DNA of 27,907 nucleotides from Candidatus Yonathbacteria bacterium RIFOXYD1_FULL_52_36 (GTDB lineage Bacteria > Patescibacteriota > Minisyncoccia > Phycocordibacterales > UBA1539_B), in NCBI GenBank assembly GCA_001823605.1, contig MHUZ01000021.1:1-27907 (forward strand), in the 5' to 3' direction. The position numbers and the translations under genes were made by a program. Below the pieces are notes generated by a model. The model was given only the letters and a program-made list of their open reading frames with translations, was not told the DNA's origin and ran no database searches. The stretch's first letter is position 1; each line of letters starts with the position of its first letter. Below are positions 3,805-14,806 of the stretch, one piece after another.

Positions 3805-4386
3805 TTACGCCCGAAAACGCTCCTCAGCAACATCCCAATTGATGGCATTCCAGAACGCGTCGATGTACTCAGCACGCTTCAGACCGTAATCAAGCATGAA
3901 TGCATGTTCGAATACATCCATAACAAGAATCGGCCGCGCACCGGCAAGGTGTCCTGCATCGTGCTCGTTGACCCACACATTAAAAAGACGTTTTGTCTCT
4001 TCATCTCTTACGAGGATTGCCCAACCAATACCGCGCATAGCGCCAGTTGCCTTAAAGTCCGCCGCCCATGCATCGAATGAACCAAATTGTTCCTCAATGG
4101 CAGCAAAGAGTAGTGGCTTCTCAGGGGCTTGTGCTTGTGCGCTGGTCATGTTCCCAAAATACAGCTCATGGAGACGCATACCGTTGTATTCCCAACCAAA
4201 CCGACGTTTGAGTTCTGTGTATTCAGGGGTGCCTGCCTGCGCGTTTTTAAGTGCCTCGGCAAGTTTATTCGTATTCGTCACATACCCTTGATAAAGTGTG
4301 AAGTGATTCTTAAGCAATGCATCACTAAACCCTTTGGTACCCAAGAGATGGTCAAATGATTTTGCTTCGTACGATAGTGCGGTCAT
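3805..4386 (-). CDS. sod: Fe/Mn-family superoxide dismutase
   Basis: The N-terminal pattern LPYxxxALEPxIS is present as SYEAKSFDHLLGTKGFSDALLKNH. The C-terminal metal-ligand motif DVFEHAFMLDYG corresponds to the canonical DVWEHAYY. The protein is 193 aa. Confidence 0.88.
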   Translation of the reverse strand: MTALSYEAKSFDHLLGTKGFSDALLKNHFTLYQGYVTNTNKLAEALKNAQAGTPEYTELKRRFGWEYNGMRLHELYFGNMTSAQAQAPEKPLLFAAIEEQFGSFDAWAADFKATGAMRGIGWAILVRDEETKRLFNVWVNEHDAGHLAGARPILVMDVFEHAFMLDYGLKRAEYIDAFWNAINWDVAEERFRA

Positions 4387-7751: not shown

Positions 7752-8078
7752 ATGGCACACGACCGCATTGACCGCGTTGAAGGATTGTTGCGAGAACTTG
7801 CCGCAACGTTTCTTGAACGCGAAACTGACCACACGTCGCTCATCACCGTCACCCGCTGTACCGTCTCAAGGGACCTCACGCGCTCTACGGTGTTCTTCAC
7901 CGTGCTTCCCGACAGCATGGAGGAACAGGCATCAGCATTCGTCACACGGCGCATGGGTGCGTTCCGTGAATATGTGAAGTCAAAAACTTCACTCCGCCGG
8001 CTCCCCTACTTTGAGGCGGAGTTCGACAAGGGTGAGCGCATTCGTCAAAAAATTGACTCACTCGACACTGACACATAG
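7752..8078 (+). CDS. rbfA: Ribosome-binding factor A
   Basis: 108 aa. It lies 5 nt downstream of infB, which is the conserved infB-rbfA synteny. The RbfA KH-like pattern is present (R..RV...L..ELA..F.......VT.V.VS.DL..A.VF). Confidence 0.85.
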   Translation: MAHDRIDRVEGLLRELAATFLERETDHTSLITVTRCTVSRDLTRSTVFFTVLPDSMEEQASAFVTRRMGAFREYVKSKTSLRRLPYFEAEFDKGERIRQKIDSLDTDT

Positions 8079-8103
8079 AATGTTCGAGTAGATGACATCG
8101 TAG

Positions 8104-8175
8104 GGCGTGGTGGCGAAGTGGTAACGCTTCGGTCTGCAAAACCGACACGCGCGGGTTCGATTCCCGCCCACGCCT
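8104..8175 (+). tRNA. tRNA-Cys (GCA). No encoded CCA.
   Basis: Acceptor GGCGTGG pairs with CCACGCC. Anticodon stem TCGGT/ACCGA with loop CTGCAAA. T arm GCGGG-TTCGATT-CCCGC. Discriminator T. The following bases are CTA. Confidence 0.88.
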
Positions 8176-8203
8176 CTAGAAAAAGTGCTAGAATACTCAT
8201 CAC

Positions 8204-8286
8204 GCCGGGGTGATGAAATGGTAGACATAGGAGACTTAAAATCTCCAGGGCGCAAGCCCGTGTGGGTTCGAGTCCCACCCTCGGCA
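8204..8286 (+). tRNA. tRNA-Leu (TAA), type II. No encoded CCA.
   Basis: Acceptor GCCGGGG pairs with CCTCGGC. Anticodon stem GGAGA/TCTCC with loop CTTAAAA. Long variable arm GGGCGCAAGCCCGT. T arm GTGGG-TTCGAGT-CCCAC. Discriminator A. Confidence 0.88.
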
Positions 8287-8307
8287 CTAAAGTAAATCTA
8301 AAAAGTT

Positions 8308-9510
8308 ATGGCATTTAATAAAGAGCCGTCACAACAACAGACACCAGGAGAATTAAAGATAACCGAATATGCCAACAGAGTAACGGCCGGGGAGCCACTC
8401 GACTCAATTCTTGATGGTCTGCCGCCTGGAATGAGGCAAGTGGTCGAAGCCCGTGTGAATGCTCAAGGCGAAGATCCAACTGAGAAGCCGGCGGAAAGCC
8501 AACCTGACCACGCCTTGAGATTGCCTCCTCAATACGCAGGCTTGCCATCAGAAATTGTGGAAGACCTTTGGATAATTCCGGTGTATGTCGATCCTGAAAA
8601 GACACAGAGTGAACTAAAGAAAAAGGAGGCGGTTCTTAATGCCCTACGACACAAAGAAAGAGCGGGGGCTGTGTCCGAAGAGAATGAAGCGCTTAAATGG
8701 GCAGATGATACGGCAAGAATTTCAGAAATAAGAGAGCAAATCGGTATTCCTACTCCTGAACAAGGAATAACCTCATTTGAACAACTTGGGGCCATAGAGT
8801 CGATGAGCGTCGAAGAATTTGCCGTGTATCTGGCAGCAGAGGCAAAAAAACAAGGAAAGGAGCTTGCGGGAAAGACCGCGTATGAGGCACTCACGGCACG
8901 CCCTGAGTGCCGTGAATTAAGAATTTCATCGGCATTCGGAAACTCAGACGCCCTAATGGAGGTGTTCCACAAAAATGGAGAAGCTATCCGAAAATTCAAA
9001 GAAGACACTGCATCAAAAGTTACAGCGGTCGATGGTGTAGAGTATGTTCCAGGTGCTTGGGATCATTACAAAATCCAATATGAACAGCGGGAACGGGAGG
9101 AGACACACAAAGGGTATATTACAATTAATAAAGATCAAATCCTTACTGAATTTACGCCAGATGTGCGCCACGAGATCGTAAAAAAACTTCGTGACGGTGG
9201 GTACCGTGGTCAAGTGAAATTCCCCGTGCTCGGCTCTAGGGCGCTCTTAAGCTACGACAACATTGTCCTTCACGGAAATGAGCTGGCTGATGTGGATCGT
9301 GGCATAGAAATAGTCCAGAATGTTTTAAATGAGGTCCGCCTGAACCATGAAGCTCCAAGGCGCGGGGTAGATGCGGCGGGAGTAGATGGCAAAAAAACCA
9401 GCTATACTGATCGAATTGCCCAGCTAGTCACGCAAGCAAGCAAAGATCCAAGCATTGATCTTGAAACAGAGATCAAAAGATTGAAGGAGCCCGAACACGC
9501 TCGAGAATGA
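8308..9510 (+). CDS. Hypothetical protein of 400 aa with atypical composition. Likely horizontally acquired.
   Basis: Long uninterrupted ORF that begins 22 nt after tRNA-Leu. GC is visibly lower than the flanks: one 60-nt sample is 40% against more than 55% around it. Codon usage is A-rich, with AGA/AGG Arg and AAA/GAA runs. The N terminus is an E/P/Q-rich, likely disordered region. No confident family was recognised. Confidence 0.7.
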   Translation: MAFNKEPSQQQTPGELKITEYANRVTAGEPLDSILDGLPPGMRQVVEARVNAQGEDPTEKPAESQPDHALRLPPQYAGLPSEIVEDLWIIPVYVDPEKTQSELKKKEAVLNALRHKERAGAVSEENEALKWADDTARISEIREQIGIPTPEQGITSFEQLGAIESMSVEEFAVYLAAEAKKQGKELAGKTAYEALTARPECRELRISSAFGNSDALMEVFHKNGEAIRKFKEDTASKVTAVDGVEYVPGAWDHYKIQYEQREREETHKGYITINKDQILTEFTPDVRHEIVKKLRDGGYRGQVKFPVLGSRALLSYDNIVLHGNELADVDRGIEIVQNVLNEVRLNHEAPRRGVDAAGVDGKKTSYTDRIAQLVTQASKDPSIDLETEIKRLKEPEHARE

Positions 9511-9540
9511 ATCGAGGAAGAAAATGGATCTAACCAAAAA

Positions 9541-9564
9541 AACACCCGAGAGGGTGTTTTTTTG
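9541..9564. terminator. Bidirectional intrinsic terminator between convergent genes
   Basis: Stem AACACCC / GGGTGTT with GAGA loop. It is flanked by A7 upstream and T7 downstream, so it works on both strands. It sits between the stop of the 8308-9510 gene and the mscL stop at 9570. Confidence 0.75.
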
Positions 9565-9569
9565 GTTTC

Positions 9570-9995
9570 TTAACTAAGCTCTGCCGTACACTGCGGGCAC
9601 CGTGTTGCCTTAATGGGAATTGTTGAGATACAGAATGGGCACTCTTTGGTTGTCGGTTCTCCCTCTTCGGTTTTCTCTGCCTTGCGCCGCAGATTGTTCA
9701 TGCCCTTCACCACCATAAAGATCGCGAACGCAACGATCGCAAAATCTATCACGGCGTTGAGAAACACGCCGTAGTTGAGTGTCACCGCGGCGGTAGCGTT
9801 ACTCGCCTCCTTGAGTGTGATCACCAAGTTTGAAAAATCAACACCACCGGTCAGAACTCCGACAGGAGGCATGATAACGTCACTTACGAGAGATGAAACG
9901 ATCTTGCCGAATGCGGTTCCGATAACAACGCCGATCGCCAGATCAACCACATTGCCGCGCATTGCAAACTCCTTAAATTCTTTGATGACTGACAT
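9570..9995 (-). CDS. mscL: Large-conductance mechanosensitive channel MscL with a C-terminal Cys4 zinc-ribbon tail
   Basis: [33 protein letters not shown] is the canonical MscL N terminus and TM1. TM2 is present. The start was trimmed to ATG 9993-9995, whereas the track ORF extends to 10028. The C terminus is ...[25 protein letters not shown]. Confidence 0.88.
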
Positions 9996-10035
9996 ATGTA
10001 TTGGATTACACGGATAACTCCGCTTCACTCCGTTA

Positions 10036-10111
10036 TGGTCCGCCCGGTAGGAATCGAACCTACGACCGTTTGCTTAAGAGGCAACTGCTCTACCGACTGA
10101 GCTACGGGCGG
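10036..10111 (-). tRNA. tRNA-Lys (CTT) with genomically encoded CCA
   Basis: The reverse complement is CCGCCCG-TA-GCTCAGTCGGTAGAGC-A-GTTGC-CTCTTAA-GCAAA-CGGTC-GTAGG-TTCGATT-CCTAC-CGGGCGG-A-CCA. There is one non-Watson-Crick pair at positions 27:43. Confidence 0.82.
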
Positions 10112-10125
10112 ATATTCAACCCATA

Positions 10126-10386
10126 CTACCAGAGAGCGCCTTCTGCTTCAAGGCGTTTCCGTTTTTGTGCCGATCCCCTATTATACCCACCCACGGAACC
10201 ATCCGCTCGCACTACGCGATGGCACGGGATCGCCGGGTCGTAATTAGTGGTGAGGATATTCCCCACCGCGCGATACGCACGCGGACTTCCCGCGCGACGT
10301 GCCACTTCAGCATAGGTCATCGTCTTGCCTTTGGGAATCGTGCGGACCACGCTGAATACTTTGTCTCGAAATACAATCCTCTCCAT
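10126..10386 (-). CDS. Single-domain MGMT-family protein (methylated-DNA-protein-cysteine methyltransferase DNA-binding / acceptor domain only)
   Basis: The PCHRVV motif is IPCHRVVRADGSVGGY, followed by the helix-turn-helix TYAEVARRAGSPRAYRAVGN. The start was trimmed to ATG 10384-10386 (MERIVFRD...). The protein is 86 aa. Confidence 0.8.
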   Translation of the reverse strand: MERIVFRDKVFSVVRTIPKGKTMTYAEVARRAGSPRAYRAVGNILTTNYDPAIPCHRVVRADGSVGGYNRGSAQKRKRLEAEGALW

Positions 10387-10407
10387 TACACTGACTGTAC
10401 CACAACG

Positions 10408-10436
10408 TTGGTGATTCACTAAAAATGCGCTAGAAT
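10408..10436 (+). promoter_or_regulatory. Sigma70-like promoter for the tRNA-Leu pair
   Basis: TTGGTG, a 17-nt spacer and TAGAAT, located 42 nt upstream of tRNA-Leu(TAG). Confidence 0.45.
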
Positions 10437-10478
10437 CCTAGAACACCAAGAGGGATAGGTGCTGCGGTGAAACGAAGC

Positions 10479-10560
10479 GCCGAGGTGGCGAAATTGGTAT
10501 ACGCACTTGCCTTAGGAGCAAGCGGGGCAACCCATGGAGGTTCAAGTCCTCTCCTCGGCA
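10479..10560 (+). tRNA. tRNA-Leu (TAG), type II. No encoded CCA.
   Basis: Acceptor GCCGAGG pairs with CCTCGGC. Anticodon stem CTTGC/GCAAG with loop CTTAGGA. Long variable arm. T arm GGAGG-TTCAAGT-CCTCT. Discriminator A. Confidence 0.85.
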
Positions 10561-10577
10561 CAAAAAAGGAACCAAGC

Positions 10578-10662
10578 GGGCGTGTGGCGGAATTGGTATA
10601 CGCGTACGTCTCAGAAGCGTATGGAGTAATCCTTGGGAGTTCGAGTCTCCCCACGCCCACCA
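10578..10662 (+). tRNA. tRNA-Leu (CAG), type II, with encoded CCA
   Basis: Acceptor GGGCGTG pairs with CACGCCC. Anticodon stem TACGT/GCGTA with loop CTCAGAA. Variable arm TGGAGTAATCCTT. T arm GGGAG-TTCGAGT-CTCCC. The 3' end is A-CCA. Confidence 0.82.
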
Positions 10663-13095: not shown

Positions 13096-13482
13096 TTAGC
13101 GAGTACGGTTGTTGATCGGGAGATCTGGCGCAGATCCTGTTGTTCCACGTCCACCGACCGTTCGAATCAAAATTCCCACCAATGCCCATACGCTCACCAT
13201 AATAGCGATCGCCACAATGCTGTGGACGATCATACTGCGAGCTTCTTTACGAGCTTCTTCGTCACCTGAATTCAAAACAAACTTTGCCAATCCCCAGAGG
13301 AAATACACCACCGCGAGTGAAACAAAGAGTGAAGCGAGGAGGTTCAAAATAGTACCGACGAACGCAAAGACATCTCCCGCGTCTGCTTGTGTACCAATGG
13401 TAAGTGGTCCCGTCGCAAATACTGCCACAGGAAGCATCGCCACGAGGATCCATGCTGAGATCTTTATTGCTGTAGAACGCAT
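13096..13482 (-). CDS. Small two-TM protein, paralogue B, with an N-terminal signal peptide
   Basis: Signal peptide MRSTAIKISAWILVAMLPVAVFA. Core: VVYFLWGLAKFVLNSGDEEARKEARSMIVHSIVAIAIMVSVWALVGIL. The alternative upstream start at 13527 is encoded by AT-rich, promoter-like sequence. Confidence 0.65.
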   Translation of the reverse strand: MRSTAIKISAWILVAMLPVAVFATGPLTIGTQADAGDVFAFVGTILNLLASLFVSLAVVYFLWGLAKFVLNSGDEEARKEARSMIVHSIVAIAIMVSVWALVGILIRTVGGRGTTGSAPDLPINNRTR

Positions 13483-13590
13483 AACGTAATTAAAAATGCT
13501 TTTATAAATAAAATTGATGATCGACACAACCTATCCTCTAGTATACGGCACACCTGGACAACCCGCAATCATACCTGTGGATAGCACCGT

Positions 13591-13935
13591 TTACGAAAGC
13601 GTGCGTACCACGATCCCCACAAATGCCCAAAAGGCGGCAATGACCGCAAGAGCGACGATTCCCCAAATCATCCGTTCCCTGCCCTCAGTGCGCCCGTCAG
13701 ACTCTGCAGAATTGCGTATATACTGCACGGCACCCCAGAGAAAATAGACAATGGTGGCAGCAAAAAGAATACTCACCAAAGGACCGATGATCTGACCGAC
13801 CACATACTGCACCAATGTCCTAAAGTCAGTAAAGTGCTCTGACACATATACCCCTTCCGCCGAAAGAACGAGCGGAGCAAATAATCCAAATGCCCCAAGG
13901 ACACTGCCGATGTTTCTTTGAACCCTAGTATGCAT
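13591..13935 (-). CDS. Small two-TM protein, paralogue C, with an N-terminal signal peptide
   Basis: Signal peptide MHTRVQRNIGSVLGAFGLFAPLVLSAEG. Core: TIVYFLWGAVQYIRNSAESDGRTEGRERMIWGIVALAVIAAFWAFVGIV. A GAGAGA SD sits 9 nt upstream. Confidence 0.7.
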   Translation of the reverse strand: MHTRVQRNIGSVLGAFGLFAPLVLSAEGVYVSEHFTDFRTLVQYVVGQIIGPLVSILFAATIVYFLWGAVQYIRNSAESDGRTEGRERMIWGIVALAVIAAFWAFVGIVVRTLS

Positions 13936-13951
13936 ATATTTATCTCTCTAT

Positions 13952-14419
13952 CTAGATCCTTTGGATCGTCCCCGCAATCGCCGTTGCCAACGCCCAAGCG
14001 CCGAGTACGATCGCCGCGCCAATAATCGTACCAAAAAATGTTTTCTTGGCATCTTCAAGTTTCTTAGTGTCTCCTCCTGCAGTCACAAAAAGAAATCCGG
14101 AGTAAATAAGCATCACCGCTATGACCGGCATCAAGATCCGCACAATCGCTTCAAGGACTTTGTGTAAAAGCTCCATGAGGCTGTTGTAGGGTGTCGGGTT
14201 CGGAAACCTGATTGTCTCCCCAGATCCTGCCACTGGCTGAACATTGGTAGTTCGAGGTGCCTGCGGCGTGATTGTACCCTGTCCCGCGGGTGGCTGTGGC
14301 GTAATGGTCCCTTGGGCATACACAACACCCCCCGGCACCGCAACAAGAACCATGCTGACCAACAGCGAACATACTGCTATGCCACCTGCGATGTACGTAT
14401 ATAGTGATTTCATGCTCAT
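13952..14419 (-). CDS. VirB2/TrbC-like pilin-like protein, paralogue D, with a signal peptide and a Pro/Thr-rich tandem repeat
   Basis: Signal peptide MSMKSLYTYIAGGIAVCSLLVSMVLVAVPGGVVYAQG. Tandem 11-mer GTITPQPPAGQ / GTITPQAPRTT. Core IAVMLIYSGFLFVTAGGDTKKLEDAKKTFFGTIIGAAIVLGAWALATAIAG. This IYGGF..T.GG...K...AKK...A.IG..IV..A pattern was recalled from memory as a CPR pilin-like family signature. Confidence 0.75.
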   Translation of the reverse strand: MSMKSLYTYIAGGIAVCSLLVSMVLVAVPGGVVYAQGTITPQPPAGQGTITPQAPRTTNVQPVAGSGETIRFPNPTPYNSLMELLHKVLEAIVRILMPVIAVMLIYSGFLFVTAGGDTKKLEDAKKTFFGTIIGAAIVLGAWALATAIAGTIQRI

Positions 14420-14425
14420 AGATTA

Positions 14426-14806
14426 TTACCCGACAGATCTAAACGGTTCTTCGAACAGGACCGTCATGACAAACTTTACGATCACCCACGCACCAAATGC
14501 CACCACTAACCCGATCGCGGCCCACAGAAAAGCATCTTTCGCATTTTGACGTGCCGTGTCGCTCCCCCCATGGATCATCAACTGAAACCCCGCATAGGCA
14601 AACGCAACCGCCGCAAGGGGAAGTGCTAACCCGTACAACAAAAAATCAACGATGTTGCGCGCCAGTTGCATAAGTTGTGTCCAGCCACATCCCGACCCTT
14701 CACATGCCGGCACGATCGCCGTCGGCGCAGTCGCGTACACAAGTACCGGAACAAAGCTTACCACGACCGCGCTTGTGCGTGCTGCATAGTCTTGAAACAT
14801 ACTCAT
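14426..14806 (-). CDS. VirB2/TrbC-like pilin-like protein, paralogue E
   Basis: Signal-like hydrophobic N terminus followed by CEGSGCGW. Core AVAFAYAGFQLMIHGGSDTARQNAKDAFLWAAIGLVVAFGAWVIVKFV. It starts 2 nt after the stop of the upstream SBP gene and ends 6 nt before D. Confidence 0.72.
   Translation of the reverse strand: MSMFQDYAARTSAVVVSFVPVLVYATAPTAIVPACEGSGCGWTQLMQLARNIVDFLLYGLALPLAAVAFAYAGFQLMIHGGSDTARQNAKDAFLWAAIGLVVAFGAWVIVKFVMTVLFEEPFRSVG

Follow-up and report, generated by a model that had tools for sequence, protein, structure and literature searches.

Results

An ORF within a tRNA gene array

The stretch of DNA from Candidatus Yonathbacteria, an ultra-small bacterium of groundwater, analyzed here (27,907 nt, hereafter the window) contains an ORF located within an array of tRNA genes (Table 1). 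A first-pass annotation, made from the DNA letters, had called this ORF of 400 aa, and the ORF, on the plus strand with an ATG start, indeed proved to be real and conserved. An identical protein was found on 14 contigs, and in all four contigs that were read (4/4) the gene order was the same as in the window. The ORF is located directly 3' of tRNA-Cys and tRNA-Leu(taa), as annotated; however, the spacing between tRNA and ATG is 20 nt and not 22 nt. Because of this short gap we infer co-transcription of tRNA-Cys, tRNA-Leu and the ORF, which the putative promoter upstream of tRNA-Cys could drive.

Table 1. Features of the locus and of the encoded protein, with positions in the window.
Feature	Position	Strand	Remarks
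Candidate sigma-70-like promoter, 5' of tRNA-Cys	8053-8081	+	TTGACT-17 nt-TAGAAT; 10/12 consensus positions, consensus match only
tRNA-Cys(gca)	8104-8176	+	First tRNA of the ancestral array; also 3' of rbfA in ~25 relatives
tRNA-Leu(taa)	8204-8287	+	3' end is the left edge of the insertion gap
ORF, 400 aa	8308-9510	+	ATG start; N-terminal module, coiled linker and HopA1/LanY-like core
N-module part A, residues 12-53	8341-8466	+	Three-helix unit; motif KIxEYxxRIxxGExxxSILxGLP
Acidic Pro-rich linker, residues 54-68	8467-8511	+	pLDDT <50; variable or missing in homologues
N-module part B, residues 69-115	8512-8652	+	Motif RLPPQYxGLPxEIxxxLWxIPxYVDxEKT
Long lone helix, residues 96-144	8593-8739	+	Leads from N-module to core; pLDDT 87-91
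Core domain, residues 160-395	8785-9492	+	Unannotated family with predicted HopA1/LanY/OspF phospholyase fold
K268-G-Y270	9109-9117	+	On beta-strand; K268 aligned with CaoY R187 and SpvC K104 (enolate-stabilizing)
K304	9217-9219	+	Candidate catalytic base; aligned with CaoY K219 and SpvC K136
R311	9238-9240	+	Putative phosphate-binding Arg; role like CaoY R229 and SpvC R148
Y-D317-N-I-V-L-H322-G motif	9256-9276	+	Matches CaoY F-D231-A-L-V-L-Y236
Bidirectional intrinsic terminator	9532-9567		Perfect 16-bp hairpin; common to ORF and mscL
mscL	9570-10028	-	PF01741, E 3e-44; second cargo gene of the Leu(taa)/Lys gap
tRNA-Lys(ctt)	10036-10111	-	Right edge of the gap; inverted relative to the usual array
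MGMT-type DNA_binding_1 gene	10126-10419	-	Further cargo, between tRNA-Lys and tRNA-Leu(tag)
tRNA-Leu(tag) and tRNA-Leu(cag)	10479-10662	+	End of the array

Downstream of the ORF, the bidirectional terminator that had been postulated opposite mscL was recovered as a hairpin with A- and T-runs on either side, facing mscL. Its calculated folding energy was -24 kcal/mol (z -4.2) on one strand and -23 kcal/mol (z -5.7) on the other. The mscL gene itself has a normal composition and had no match in 80 infB-relative loci; likewise, the MGMT-type gene was not found at the loci of relatives.

Base composition and codon choice

The GC content of the ORF had been put at 40-45% against 55-58% in its neighbors. 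The direction of this difference holds but its size does not: the ORF has 47.5% GC vs 52.2% for the window (4.7 points lower), and neighboring genes range from 47 to 58%. With 41.6%, the GC3 of the ORF is the lowest among 25 genes (mean of the rest 56.4%, sd 5.9; z -2.5), and observed minus expected GC3 amounts to -0.149 (z -2.2). The source of this deficit is synonymous codon choice. As annotated, arginine codons differ from those of the neighbors, AGA and AGG making up 10 of the 25 Arg codons (40%) vs 9% in the other genes. A deficit limited to a C-terminal cassette was ruled out, as it runs evenly across the whole gene. Since the SOD gene (3805-4386) and one pilin gene (13096-13527), both native-looking, come near the composition of the ORF, the latter is an edge-of-range outlier and no foreign block. 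The composition is odd, but the original claim was overstated.

In relatives, the tRNA array is an insertion hotspot

In most relatives rbfA, tRNA-Cys, tRNA-Leu(taa), tRNA-Lys and tRNA-Leu(tag) are tightly packed, with 37-255 nt between tRNA-Leu(taa) and tRNA-Lys (loci L022, L036, L042, L045, L056, L083, L091 and L096). The closest relative, L022 (infB 62% identical), has such a tight array. Among the 80 infB-relative loci, those of 30 relatives extended for 2.5 kb or more past the downstream end of infB, and none of them (0/30) carried a homologue of the ORF, the closest ones (infB 59-62% identical) included. The arrays of other relatives are occupied by LAGLIDADG genes or, at tRNA-Leu(taa) or tRNA-Lys, by genes for large serine recombinases. 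Recombinase genes lie at these tRNAs in L023 and L026, the one in L023 encoding a large serine recombinase and overlapping tRNA-Leu(taa) at its 3' end. Judging from the relatives, the array that houses the ORF is an insertion hotspot.

Two lineages (L007 and L008) carry the gene inside the same gap, in opposite orientation. These copies are 46% identical to the ORF core, the corresponding values being 50% for infB and 33-37% for rbfA. A higher identity, 70% over the core, was obtained with a protein of a MAG labelled Saccharibacteria, a label given by the MAG title alone. In other genomes the gene was located in at least three unrelated loci, and the GC content of the homologues, from 30% to 47%, tracks that of each host genome. 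Within the 27.9-kb window no integrase, recombinase, transposase or phage genes were found. For the terminal 22 nt at the 3' end of tRNA-Leu(taa), no second copy was found at up to three mismatches, and there is no att repeat in the window; the sole repeats of the tRNA-Leu 3' end reflect the T-arm similarity among tRNAs. The idea of a mobile-element remnant is not supported, the window having neither an integrase, transposase or phage gene nor the tRNA-Leu 3' repeat. The tRNA 3' flank as an integration site is supported by the hotspot in relatives but not by such a repeat in the window.

An early reading of the locus as vertical and not an island, based on the synteny with L007 and L008 and on host-like GC, was revised when the 80 loci showed empty sites and mobile elements. 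An old gene, vertically inherited without any horizontal transfer, lost in most relatives and keeping AT-rich codons for expression, would explain why L007 and L008 use the same gap at an identity that fits infB and rbfA, why homologue GC follows the host, and why the window lacks an integrase or att repeat. However, it is at odds with the absence from 30/30 relatives with enough flank and their tight arrays, the opposite orientation in L007 and L008, the unrelated loci elsewhere, the high identity to a protein of a differently labelled lineage and the AGA/AGG bias, and we regard it as quite unlikely. Judging from the sequence comparisons, the ORF is most likely cargo in the tRNA-array hotspot, gained by gene transfer among Patescibacteria. 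Acquisition is supported because there are empty sites, mobile elements in the array, a codon bias and an incongruent similarity. Since the contigs read for the identical protein share their gene order and L007 and L008 carry the gene in the same gap, the ORF is a settled gene and no recent intact island. The horizontal acquisition first suggested is supported by the sister genomes and by the recombinases in the array.

The core domain is predicted to adopt a phospholyase fold

No motif could initially be assigned to the folded domain of the protein, but AlphaFold and Foldseek make it assignable to a known fold. The AlphaFold model reached a pLDDT of 82.5 overall and of 88-98 across most of the core. 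Top ranks in the Foldseek search were taken by HopA1, LxmY and ThurKC with probabilities of 0.97-1.00 but weak E-values (4e-3 to 8e-2), LxmY being the best structural match. [quoted passage not shown]

The core family is absent from Pfam, NCBIfam and PHROGs. The ORF had no Pfam match at E<=0.1, PF17914 included, and this family was also not among the 25 families listed for 36 diverse core domains in a scan at E<=10. Searches with the ORF and diverse family members against Pfam, PHROGs and NCBIfam yielded nothing informative, and the same was true for the viral structures of BFVD. A PDB profile search, even with a diverse profile, gave no sequence match, including 4rsw and 9dk1, and a search for LanY sequences with a reconstructed 62-residue CaoY fragment returned no matches.

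Candidate active site residues

In CaoY, the exchange K219A abolished the lyase step, R187A left the peptide mostly phosphorylated and hardly dehydrated, and R229Q led to incomplete dehydration; Y236, the conserved counterpart of SpvC Y158, was not among the mutated residues (PMC9486802). The surrounding CaoY segments, obtained from mutagenesis primers, read GL-R187-VYVHL and YRA-K219-VISTRTGYP-R229-FDALVL-Y236 (PMC9486802). Alignment of the 62-residue CaoY fragment with the family profile using hhalign gave the register K268/K304/315/H322, at a P of 0.005 but a probability of only 7%. H322 is aligned with CaoY Y236 and SpvC Y158. Two of the replacements from CaoY to the family, R to K and Y to H, are conservative. 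Among 75 diverse domains, K304 is present in all (75/75), K268 and Y270 in 74 each and D317 in 73; H322 is found in 73, the remaining two having Tyr. An R or K occupies position 311 in 32 of these domains and position 315 in 29, never both. CaoY R229 aligns to position 315, where some family members carry their basic residue instead of at 311. By alignment, the core thus appears to keep a Lys/Lys/Arg/His set at the catalytic positions of phospho-Ser/Thr lyases. The general acid of SpvC, His106, is not conserved in the core family; LanY enzymes likewise lack it. The family-specific invariants D317, D355, S365 and W251 have no described phospholyase role and could point to a different chemistry.

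The HopA1-like fold may have another job. It could bind kinases or phosphoproteins without any catalysis, or it could be an enzyme for a different phosphorylated or acylated substrate, e.g., a lipid, sugar, nucleotide or cell-wall precursor. We consider this possible but rather doubtful. HopA1, which targets EDS1 and is a putative binder of several kinases, is without demonstrated lyase activity (PMC9486802). Moreover, the invariant D317, D355, S365, W251, R198 and R202 lie outside the described lyase site, and no family matches at the sequence level. On the other hand, no positions of the family are better conserved than those corresponding to the lyase residues tested in CaoY, with K304 invariant, and the either-or arginine at 311/315 argues for a functional phosphate or anion site.

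The N-terminal module occurs with alternative C-terminal regions

The N-terminal third, first taken to be probably disordered, is mostly structured in the model. A pLDDT below 50 is confined to residues 1-10 and 54-68; residues 12-53 and 69-144 form conserved helices with a pLDDT of 75-91. Part A of the N-terminal module is shuffled among proteins and sometimes tandemly repeated, and in P0013 part B is joined to a different C-terminus. The 159 relatives comprise 36 proteins with N-module and core, 59 with the core alone and 64 with the N-module alone. Of the latter, 47 extend at least 80 residues beyond the module, in at least 15 C-terminal clusters. In P0074 the N-module is combined with a metallophosphoesterase-like domain, adjoining RuvX and tRNA_bind; at L003, N-module and core are encoded as split genes, again adjoining RuvX and tRNA_bind. 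This RuvX-adjacent locus carries alternative C-terminal domains in different genomes. From these architectures, the N-terminal helical module is an adaptor, shuffled among many alternative C-terminal domains. The combination of N-module and core was observed only in proteins of up to 600 aa.

The core is also part of giant proteins

The core was also identified inside multi-domain proteins of 1,000-5,181 aa, some on phage-like contigs. P0003 is a fusion of the core with ART-PolyVal; in P0025 the core is likewise accompanied by ART-PolyVal, and in P0020 by LPD23. The gene of P0034 (3,519 aa) has tail-spike and tail-fibre genes as neighbors. The giant ORF of L018 shows the same multi-domain polyvalent feature as P0020, P0025 and P0034. 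A scan of viral contigs with a closer alignment of the core found two contigs, and on a 142-kb IMG/VR viral contig the core lies within an ORF of more than 4,208 aa. GenBank phages and PLSDB plasmids (tblastn) as well as PHROGs gave no match. The N-module is present in none of the 26 core carriers of at least 1,000 aa (0/26).

The early guess of an effector or toxin agrees with the fold, with the fusion to ART-PolyVal and with the presence of giant proteins on phage-like contigs. These proteins with their LPD23 and ART-PolyVal partners, some of them on phage-like or viral contigs, together with the recombinase-bearing elements held by the hotspot in relatives, could also be read as a sign that the ORF is a domesticated fragment of an injected polyvalent phage protein, that is, a prophage remnant and no cellular effector. 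We find this very improbable: N-module and core are joined only in the small proteins and the N-module is missing from all giants, the window has no other phage gene, and the phage, plasmid and PHROGs searches were without match.

Discussion

Based on the sequence, the ORF probably encodes a mobile, phospho-Ser/Thr-eliminating putative effector in a tRNA hotspot of Candidatus Yonathbacteria. The best joint explanation, a two-module protein of Patescibacteria (the candidate phyla radiation, CPR) that is transferred as cargo and whose phospholyase-fold core is used in conflict, is in our view about evenly balanced between right and wrong. In the proposed mechanism, K304 would remove the alpha-proton from a phospho-Ser or phospho-Thr, with K268 stabilizing the enolate and R311 holding the leaving phosphate. 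H322 would take the place of the catalytic Tyr; R198 and R202 may assist in holding the phosphate. The product would be dehydroalanine or dehydrobutyrine, the phospho-mark being irreversibly erased. As neither a partner kinase nor a peptide precursor has a gene in the vicinity, the protein would act on targets that are already phosphorylated, like OspF, and have no part in peptide maturation. LxmY being the best structural match, a LanY-like lyase subunit of a lanthipeptide-type (RiPP) dehydratase might be considered. Yet, neither an aminoglycoside-phosphotransferase-like kinase nor a precursor peptide, cyclase or transporter was found near the gene in the window, L001, L003, L007 or L008, and such a role is hardly credible.

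The putative phospholyase probably serves in conflicts, either with a host cell or with a phage. Since its core is found inside giant phage proteins as well, we regard it as a probable weapon between organisms that is traded horizontally. A further-reaching proposal sees the family as a new phosphoprotein lyase clade, which Patescibacteria would deliver into other cells to erase irreversibly the phospho-Ser/Thr signals of their defence, with the N-module as an export signal, e.g., for the type IV secretion system; phages would use injected giant proteins as their route. We consider this unlikely as it stands. A precedent for a target of this kind is reported in a 2026 preprint (PMC13622651): Actinomycetota sense Saccharibacteria epibionts via a Ser/Thr kinase, and phosphorylation of the FHA protein EsrG1 at Thr152 by this kinase turns on an Esx-based defence. 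The ORF protein has no signal peptide or recognizable secretion domain. The type IV secretion system of Patescibacteria is essential for epibiotic growth, and we know of no substrates of it.

Phospholyases are rare "erasers": with them, the phosphorylation site is destroyed rather than reset. To our knowledge, they have so far been found in a few animal and plant pathogens and in peptide-antibiotic pathways. If our reading is correct, a large unannotated branch, located in ultra-small symbiotic bacteria and in giant proteins of phage-like contigs, would extend phospholyase chemistry to conflicts between bacteria and between phage and bacterium, the ORF would be a first concrete effector candidate for Patescibacteria, and new scaffolds to install dehydroalanine or dehydrobutyrine in proteins would become available. 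The tRNA array 3' of rbfA is a clear natural hotspot of gene insertion and inversion in reduced genomes.

Comparison with known systems

Of the features of a tRNA-targeted island, an integrase by the tRNA and a 3'-end direct repeat are absent from the window, and the empty site in relatives is present. Akin to polymorphic toxins, a constant N-module is followed by at least 15 alternative C-terminal regions, and at the RuvX-adjacent locus the C-terminal domain varies by genome. However, no immunity gene adjoins. In the window, the ORF is followed by the terminator and by mscL in convergent orientation; its downstream neighbor is a tRNA in both L007 and L008, and in L001 it is again a convergent gene. 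In addition, the N-module matches no known trafficking domain, and no secretion-system gene is linked except for a pilin array 3.6 kb away. The toxin-immunity reading was ranked low, as were the RiPP and prophage readings.

Polyvalent proteins combine 2-15 disparate domains per polypeptide and are encoded by phages, plasmids and conjugative elements (Iyer et al. 2017, PMC5512222); the words HopA1 and lyase are absent from that survey. The core resembles them in occurring in the large proteins with LPD23 or ART-PolyVal, one giant being encoded in a phage-like tail-gene neighborhood and another relative on an IMG/VR viral contig. In contrast, the window protein is small, has two modules and is encoded chromosomally among housekeeping genes, with no mobile-element gene.

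HopA1, a type III effector of Pseudomonas syringae (4rsw, 4rsx), is likewise a stand-alone protein with an N-region apart from the folded C-domain. However, neither a type III secretion system nor the ShcA chaperone is present here, and sequence similarity to the ORF is not detectable. With the phosphothreonine lyases OspF, SpvC and HopAI1 the ORF protein may share the activity of a lone lyase on pre-phosphorylated proteins, and the catalytic K136 of SpvC is conserved as K304. The structural match is nevertheless far weaker, and neither the general-acid His106 nor the Arg-rich pocket of SpvC (R213, R220) is identifiable. A MAPK docking motif like that of OspF/SpvC was not recognized, and targets of the ORF protein, if any, would be prokaryotic.

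LanY enzymes (LxmY, PDB 9dk1; CaoY) are HopA1-like phospho-Ser/Thr lyases of class V lanthipeptides and thioamitides. They share with the ORF a [KR]-x-Y strand, an invariant Lys on the next strand and then (R)-[FY]-D-x-[IL]-V-L-[YH], so that CaoY R187, K219, R229 and Y236 would correspond to K268, K304, R311/R315 and H322. In contrast to LanY, the ORF has no PF17914 match (identity is ~10-12%), no APH-like kinase (LanK) or precursor nearby in the window and five related loci, and an additional N-terminal module; its family has His for the catalytic Tyr and Lys for Arg. Whereas LanY belongs to actinomycete biosynthetic clusters, the ORF family occurs in Patescibacteria and in giant proteins of phage-like contigs.

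Composition and flanks of the ORF

The ORF, whose product is deposited as a hypothetical protein, belongs to Candidatus Yonathbacteria, a member of the Parcubacteria group within the Patescibacteria. Its ATG is located 20 nt from tRNA-Leu(taa). An identical protein is encoded on 14 contigs and, in all four of those read, the gene order of the window is retained, although the samples differ. The first-pass annotation described the ORF as foreign in composition, which is right in direction but overstated in size. Its GC content of 47.5% lies below the 52.2% of the window, the other genes covering 47-58%. The GC3 of 41.6% is the lowest among 25 genes (mean of the others 56.4%, sd 5.9; z -2.5), and 40% of the arginine codons are AGA/AGG, compared to 9% in the other genes. 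The GC3 deficit is synonymous (observed minus expected -0.149, z -2.2) and evenly distributed over the ORF. The hairpin between the ORF and mscL folds with about -24 kcal/mol on each strand (z -4.2 and -5.7). No obvious Shine-Dalgarno sequence was observed at the start of the ORF, and tRNA-Cys is preceded by a promoter-like site. The ORF may be co-transcribed with the upstream tRNAs and freed through tRNA processing.

The tRNA array is an insertion hotspot

The four-tRNA array 3' of rbfA (8104-10662 in the window) is an insertion and inversion hotspot in about 25 related genomes (L022-L098). For comparison, 80 metagenomic loci were collected whose infB is 46-62% identical to that of the window. 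Most contain a tight array of rbfA, tRNA-Cys, tRNA-Leu(taa), tRNA-Lys(ctt) and tRNA-Leu(tag) with a Leu(taa)-Lys spacing of only 37-255 nt, including the closest relative, L022, where the array is on a 784-kb contig. In many loci tRNA orientation is flipped, and gaps are either empty or hold varied cargo, such as an ECF sigma factor pair (L038), endonuclease genes or serine recombinases. The recombinase islands of L023 and L026 are likely integrated elements targeting the array. The window carries the ORF and mscL between Leu(taa) and Lys, an MGMT-type gene between Lys and Leu(tag), and tRNA-Lys in inverted orientation.

Features of the window and of related loci
Feature	Location	Strand	Remarks
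Promoter-like site	8053-8081	+	upstream of tRNA-Cys
tRNA-Cys	8104-8176		upstream of tRNA-Leu(taa)
tRNA-Leu(taa)	8204-8287		directly upstream of the ORF
ORF	8308-9510	+	400 aa, ATG start
Hairpin	9532-9567		perfect 16 bp, A-/T-runs at both sides; between ORF and convergent mscL
MGMT-type gene	10126-10419	-	97 aa, DNA_binding_1 domain only, PCHRV motif kept; not found in relatives' loci
Four VirB2-like T4SS pilin genes (PF18895)	13096-14806	-	3.6 kb from the ORF; kept in L007 and L008
Large serine recombinase (Resolvase, Recombinase, Zn_ribbon_recom)	L023:9020-10633	-	overlaps 3' end of tRNA-Leu(taa); then 4.4-kb island
Serine recombinase (Resolvase, Recombinase, Zn_ribbon_recom)	L026:9388-10842	-	abuts tRNA-Lys; 4.9-kb island
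LAGLIDADG-type endonuclease gene	L040:9108-9794	-	between array tRNAs
LAGLIDADG-type endonuclease gene	L028:8072-8734	+	between array tRNAs
tRNA-like gene	L022:9911-9998	-	inside array; two-base anticodon left undetermined by ARAGORN
Split homologue	L003:7549-8699		N-module and core ORFs
P0074	L020:8001-9485		N-module, metallophosphoesterase-like C-terminus

The homologues P0008 and P0009 share the neighbourhood of the window (clpB, trypsin-like protease, aminotransferase, DUF4446, infB, rbfA, homologue, Band_7, a T4SS-pilin array, SBP, methyltransferase and gyrA), with the same tRNA borders, one formed by Cys plus Leu(taa) and the opposite one by Lys plus Leu(tag). The GC content of homologues tracks that of the host genome, from 30% to 47%. 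This synteny, the shared tRNA flanks and the host-following GC looked like vertical inheritance, a reading revised after the 80 infB-relative loci. In 30 loci the sequence extends 2.5 kb or more downstream from infB, and neither module of the protein is encoded in any of them. Two other lineages (L007, L008) carry an oppositely oriented homologue in the Leu(taa)/Lys gap, and the family also occurs at unrelated loci, adjoining RuvX (L003) or near Mur ligases (L001). Moreover, the core shares 70% identity with a protein from a MAG titled Candidatus Saccharibacteria, but only 46% with the syntenic copies. Ancient presence of the ORF, followed by many losses, is the less likely alternative. Most likely, the ORF is a settled cargo gene in the hotspot that arrived via transfer among Patescibacteria, and we consider its cargo or transfer status quite probable. 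Neither an integrase nor any other gene of a mobile element is present in the window, and a repeat of the tRNA-Leu 3' end, which the first-pass annotation suggested looking for, was not found in it. Acquisition at the tRNA site, also proposed, is upheld by the empty gaps in relatives and the recombinases in the same array.

Modular architecture of the protein family

Close relatives are rare: a set of 5.8 billion clustered proteins contains only 10-13. When 1.84 billion representatives were searched exhaustively with a profile, 347 relatives scored at E<=1e-3. The profile was divided into models of the helical N-module (residues 8-115) and the core (160-395), which were scored on the 159 sequences in hand. 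Both modules were present in 36 proteins, every one of at most 600 aa, while 59 had the core without the N-module and 64 the N-module without the core. In 26 of the 59, the core is embedded in proteins of 1,000-5,181 aa. Where at least 80 residues follow the N-module (47 of the 64), the C-terminal regions form at least 15 unrelated clusters. The N-terminus, first taken as probably disordered, is a module that recurs across the family. P0014, P0121 and P0141 carry its first 50-residue element as two or three tandem copies.

In a Saccharibacteria-labelled MAG (L003), a frameshift has left the N-module (151 aa) and the core (232 aa) in separate ORFs that overlap at ATGA on the family-invariant Met166. 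Since five assemblies agree on this identical split (L003, L004, L005, L006, L010), the modules are separable, and the two ORFs may form a translationally coupled pair. P0074 adjoins RuvX and tRNA_bind, like the N-module and core genes of L003, and joins its metallophosphoesterase-like C-terminus, another domain that removes phosphate, to this adaptor, by coincidence or not. The core is fused to an ART-PolyVal ADP-ribosyltransferase in P0003 (E 8e-24); ART-PolyVal is also present in P0025, and LPD23 in P0020. P0034 (3,519 aa) neighbours virion, tail-spike and tail-fibre genes, and on two viral contigs from IMG/VR (142 kb in one case), the core lies within an ORF of >4,208 aa.

Fold and putative active site of the core

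Searches of Pfam, NCBIfam, PHROG and PDB gave no sequence match, even with a profile of 36 diverse domains. The confident AlphaFold model (pLDDT 82.5 for the whole protein, 88-98 across most of the core) independently retrieved HopA1, LxmY and ThurKC as top Foldseek matches, with modest E-values. A HopA1/LanY-like fold is thus highly probable, and the earlier view that no motif could be assigned is superseded. Profile positions 87-142 also weakly matched a phage hub/tail protein (PDB 9cuy_X, E 0.09, 'KGYVTV...AGYNGDEK'), probably by chance, although the two most conserved strands are spanned.

Across 75 diverse domains, R198, R202, W251, K268, Y270, T272, K304, D317, H322, D355 and S365 are near-invariant, K304 being conserved in 100%. 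In the lyase CaoY, K219A abolishes the lyase step, leaving phosphorylated peptide only, R187A leaves mostly phosphorylated peptide with trace dehydration, and R229Q dehydrates fully only in part, leaving phosphorylated intermediates; these residues correspond to SpvC K136 (the base), K104 and R148, and Y236 is the conserved counterpart of SpvC Y158, mutants having been made at other positions (PMC9486802). CaoY segments were reconstructed from the mutagenesis primers in the supplement of that paper. Using hhalign, R187/K219/R229/Y236 fell on K268/K304/position 315/H322 of the family profile (P 0.005, probability only 7%), and the CaoY motif R-F-D-A-L-V-L-Y has its family counterpart in (R)-[FY]-D-N-I-V-L-H. 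Position 311 is basic in 32 domains and position 315 in 29, both in none, as would be expected if one functional Arg came from either position. While fold and residue conservation are read directly from these comparisons, the catalytic mechanism is one that we infer, and for phospholyase activity the chances appear evenly balanced.

Proposed function

A role in inter-organism conflict is indicated by the partners (ART and, on phage-like contigs, polyvalent giant proteins), by the polymorphic architecture and by mobility. The effector-like nature suggested at first pass holds up, and the annotation as a whole was partly confirmed in observation and partly supported in interpretation; actual delivery as an effector seems rather unlikely. 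Epibiotic growth of Patescibacteria requires their type IV secretion system, of which VirB2-like pilin arrays are a typical feature; such arrays were reported essential in a cultivated Saccharibacterium. Actinomycetota sense Saccharibacteria through a Ser/Thr kinase that phosphorylates an FHA protein (PMC13622651). In light of this literature, a host-directed role is plausible. The swappable N-terminal adaptor would serve targeting or export.

In the literature searched, neither Patescibacteria nor polyvalent proteins are linked to phospholyase or HopA1-like domains. We regard the core as a so far unannotated, new branch within a known enzyme superfamily, in an architectural and ecological setting that is also new. 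Because neither a kinase nor a precursor peptide nor an immunity gene is present near the ORF, a stand-alone lyase is the simplest reading: akin to OspF, the protein would act alone on substrates phosphorylated beforehand.
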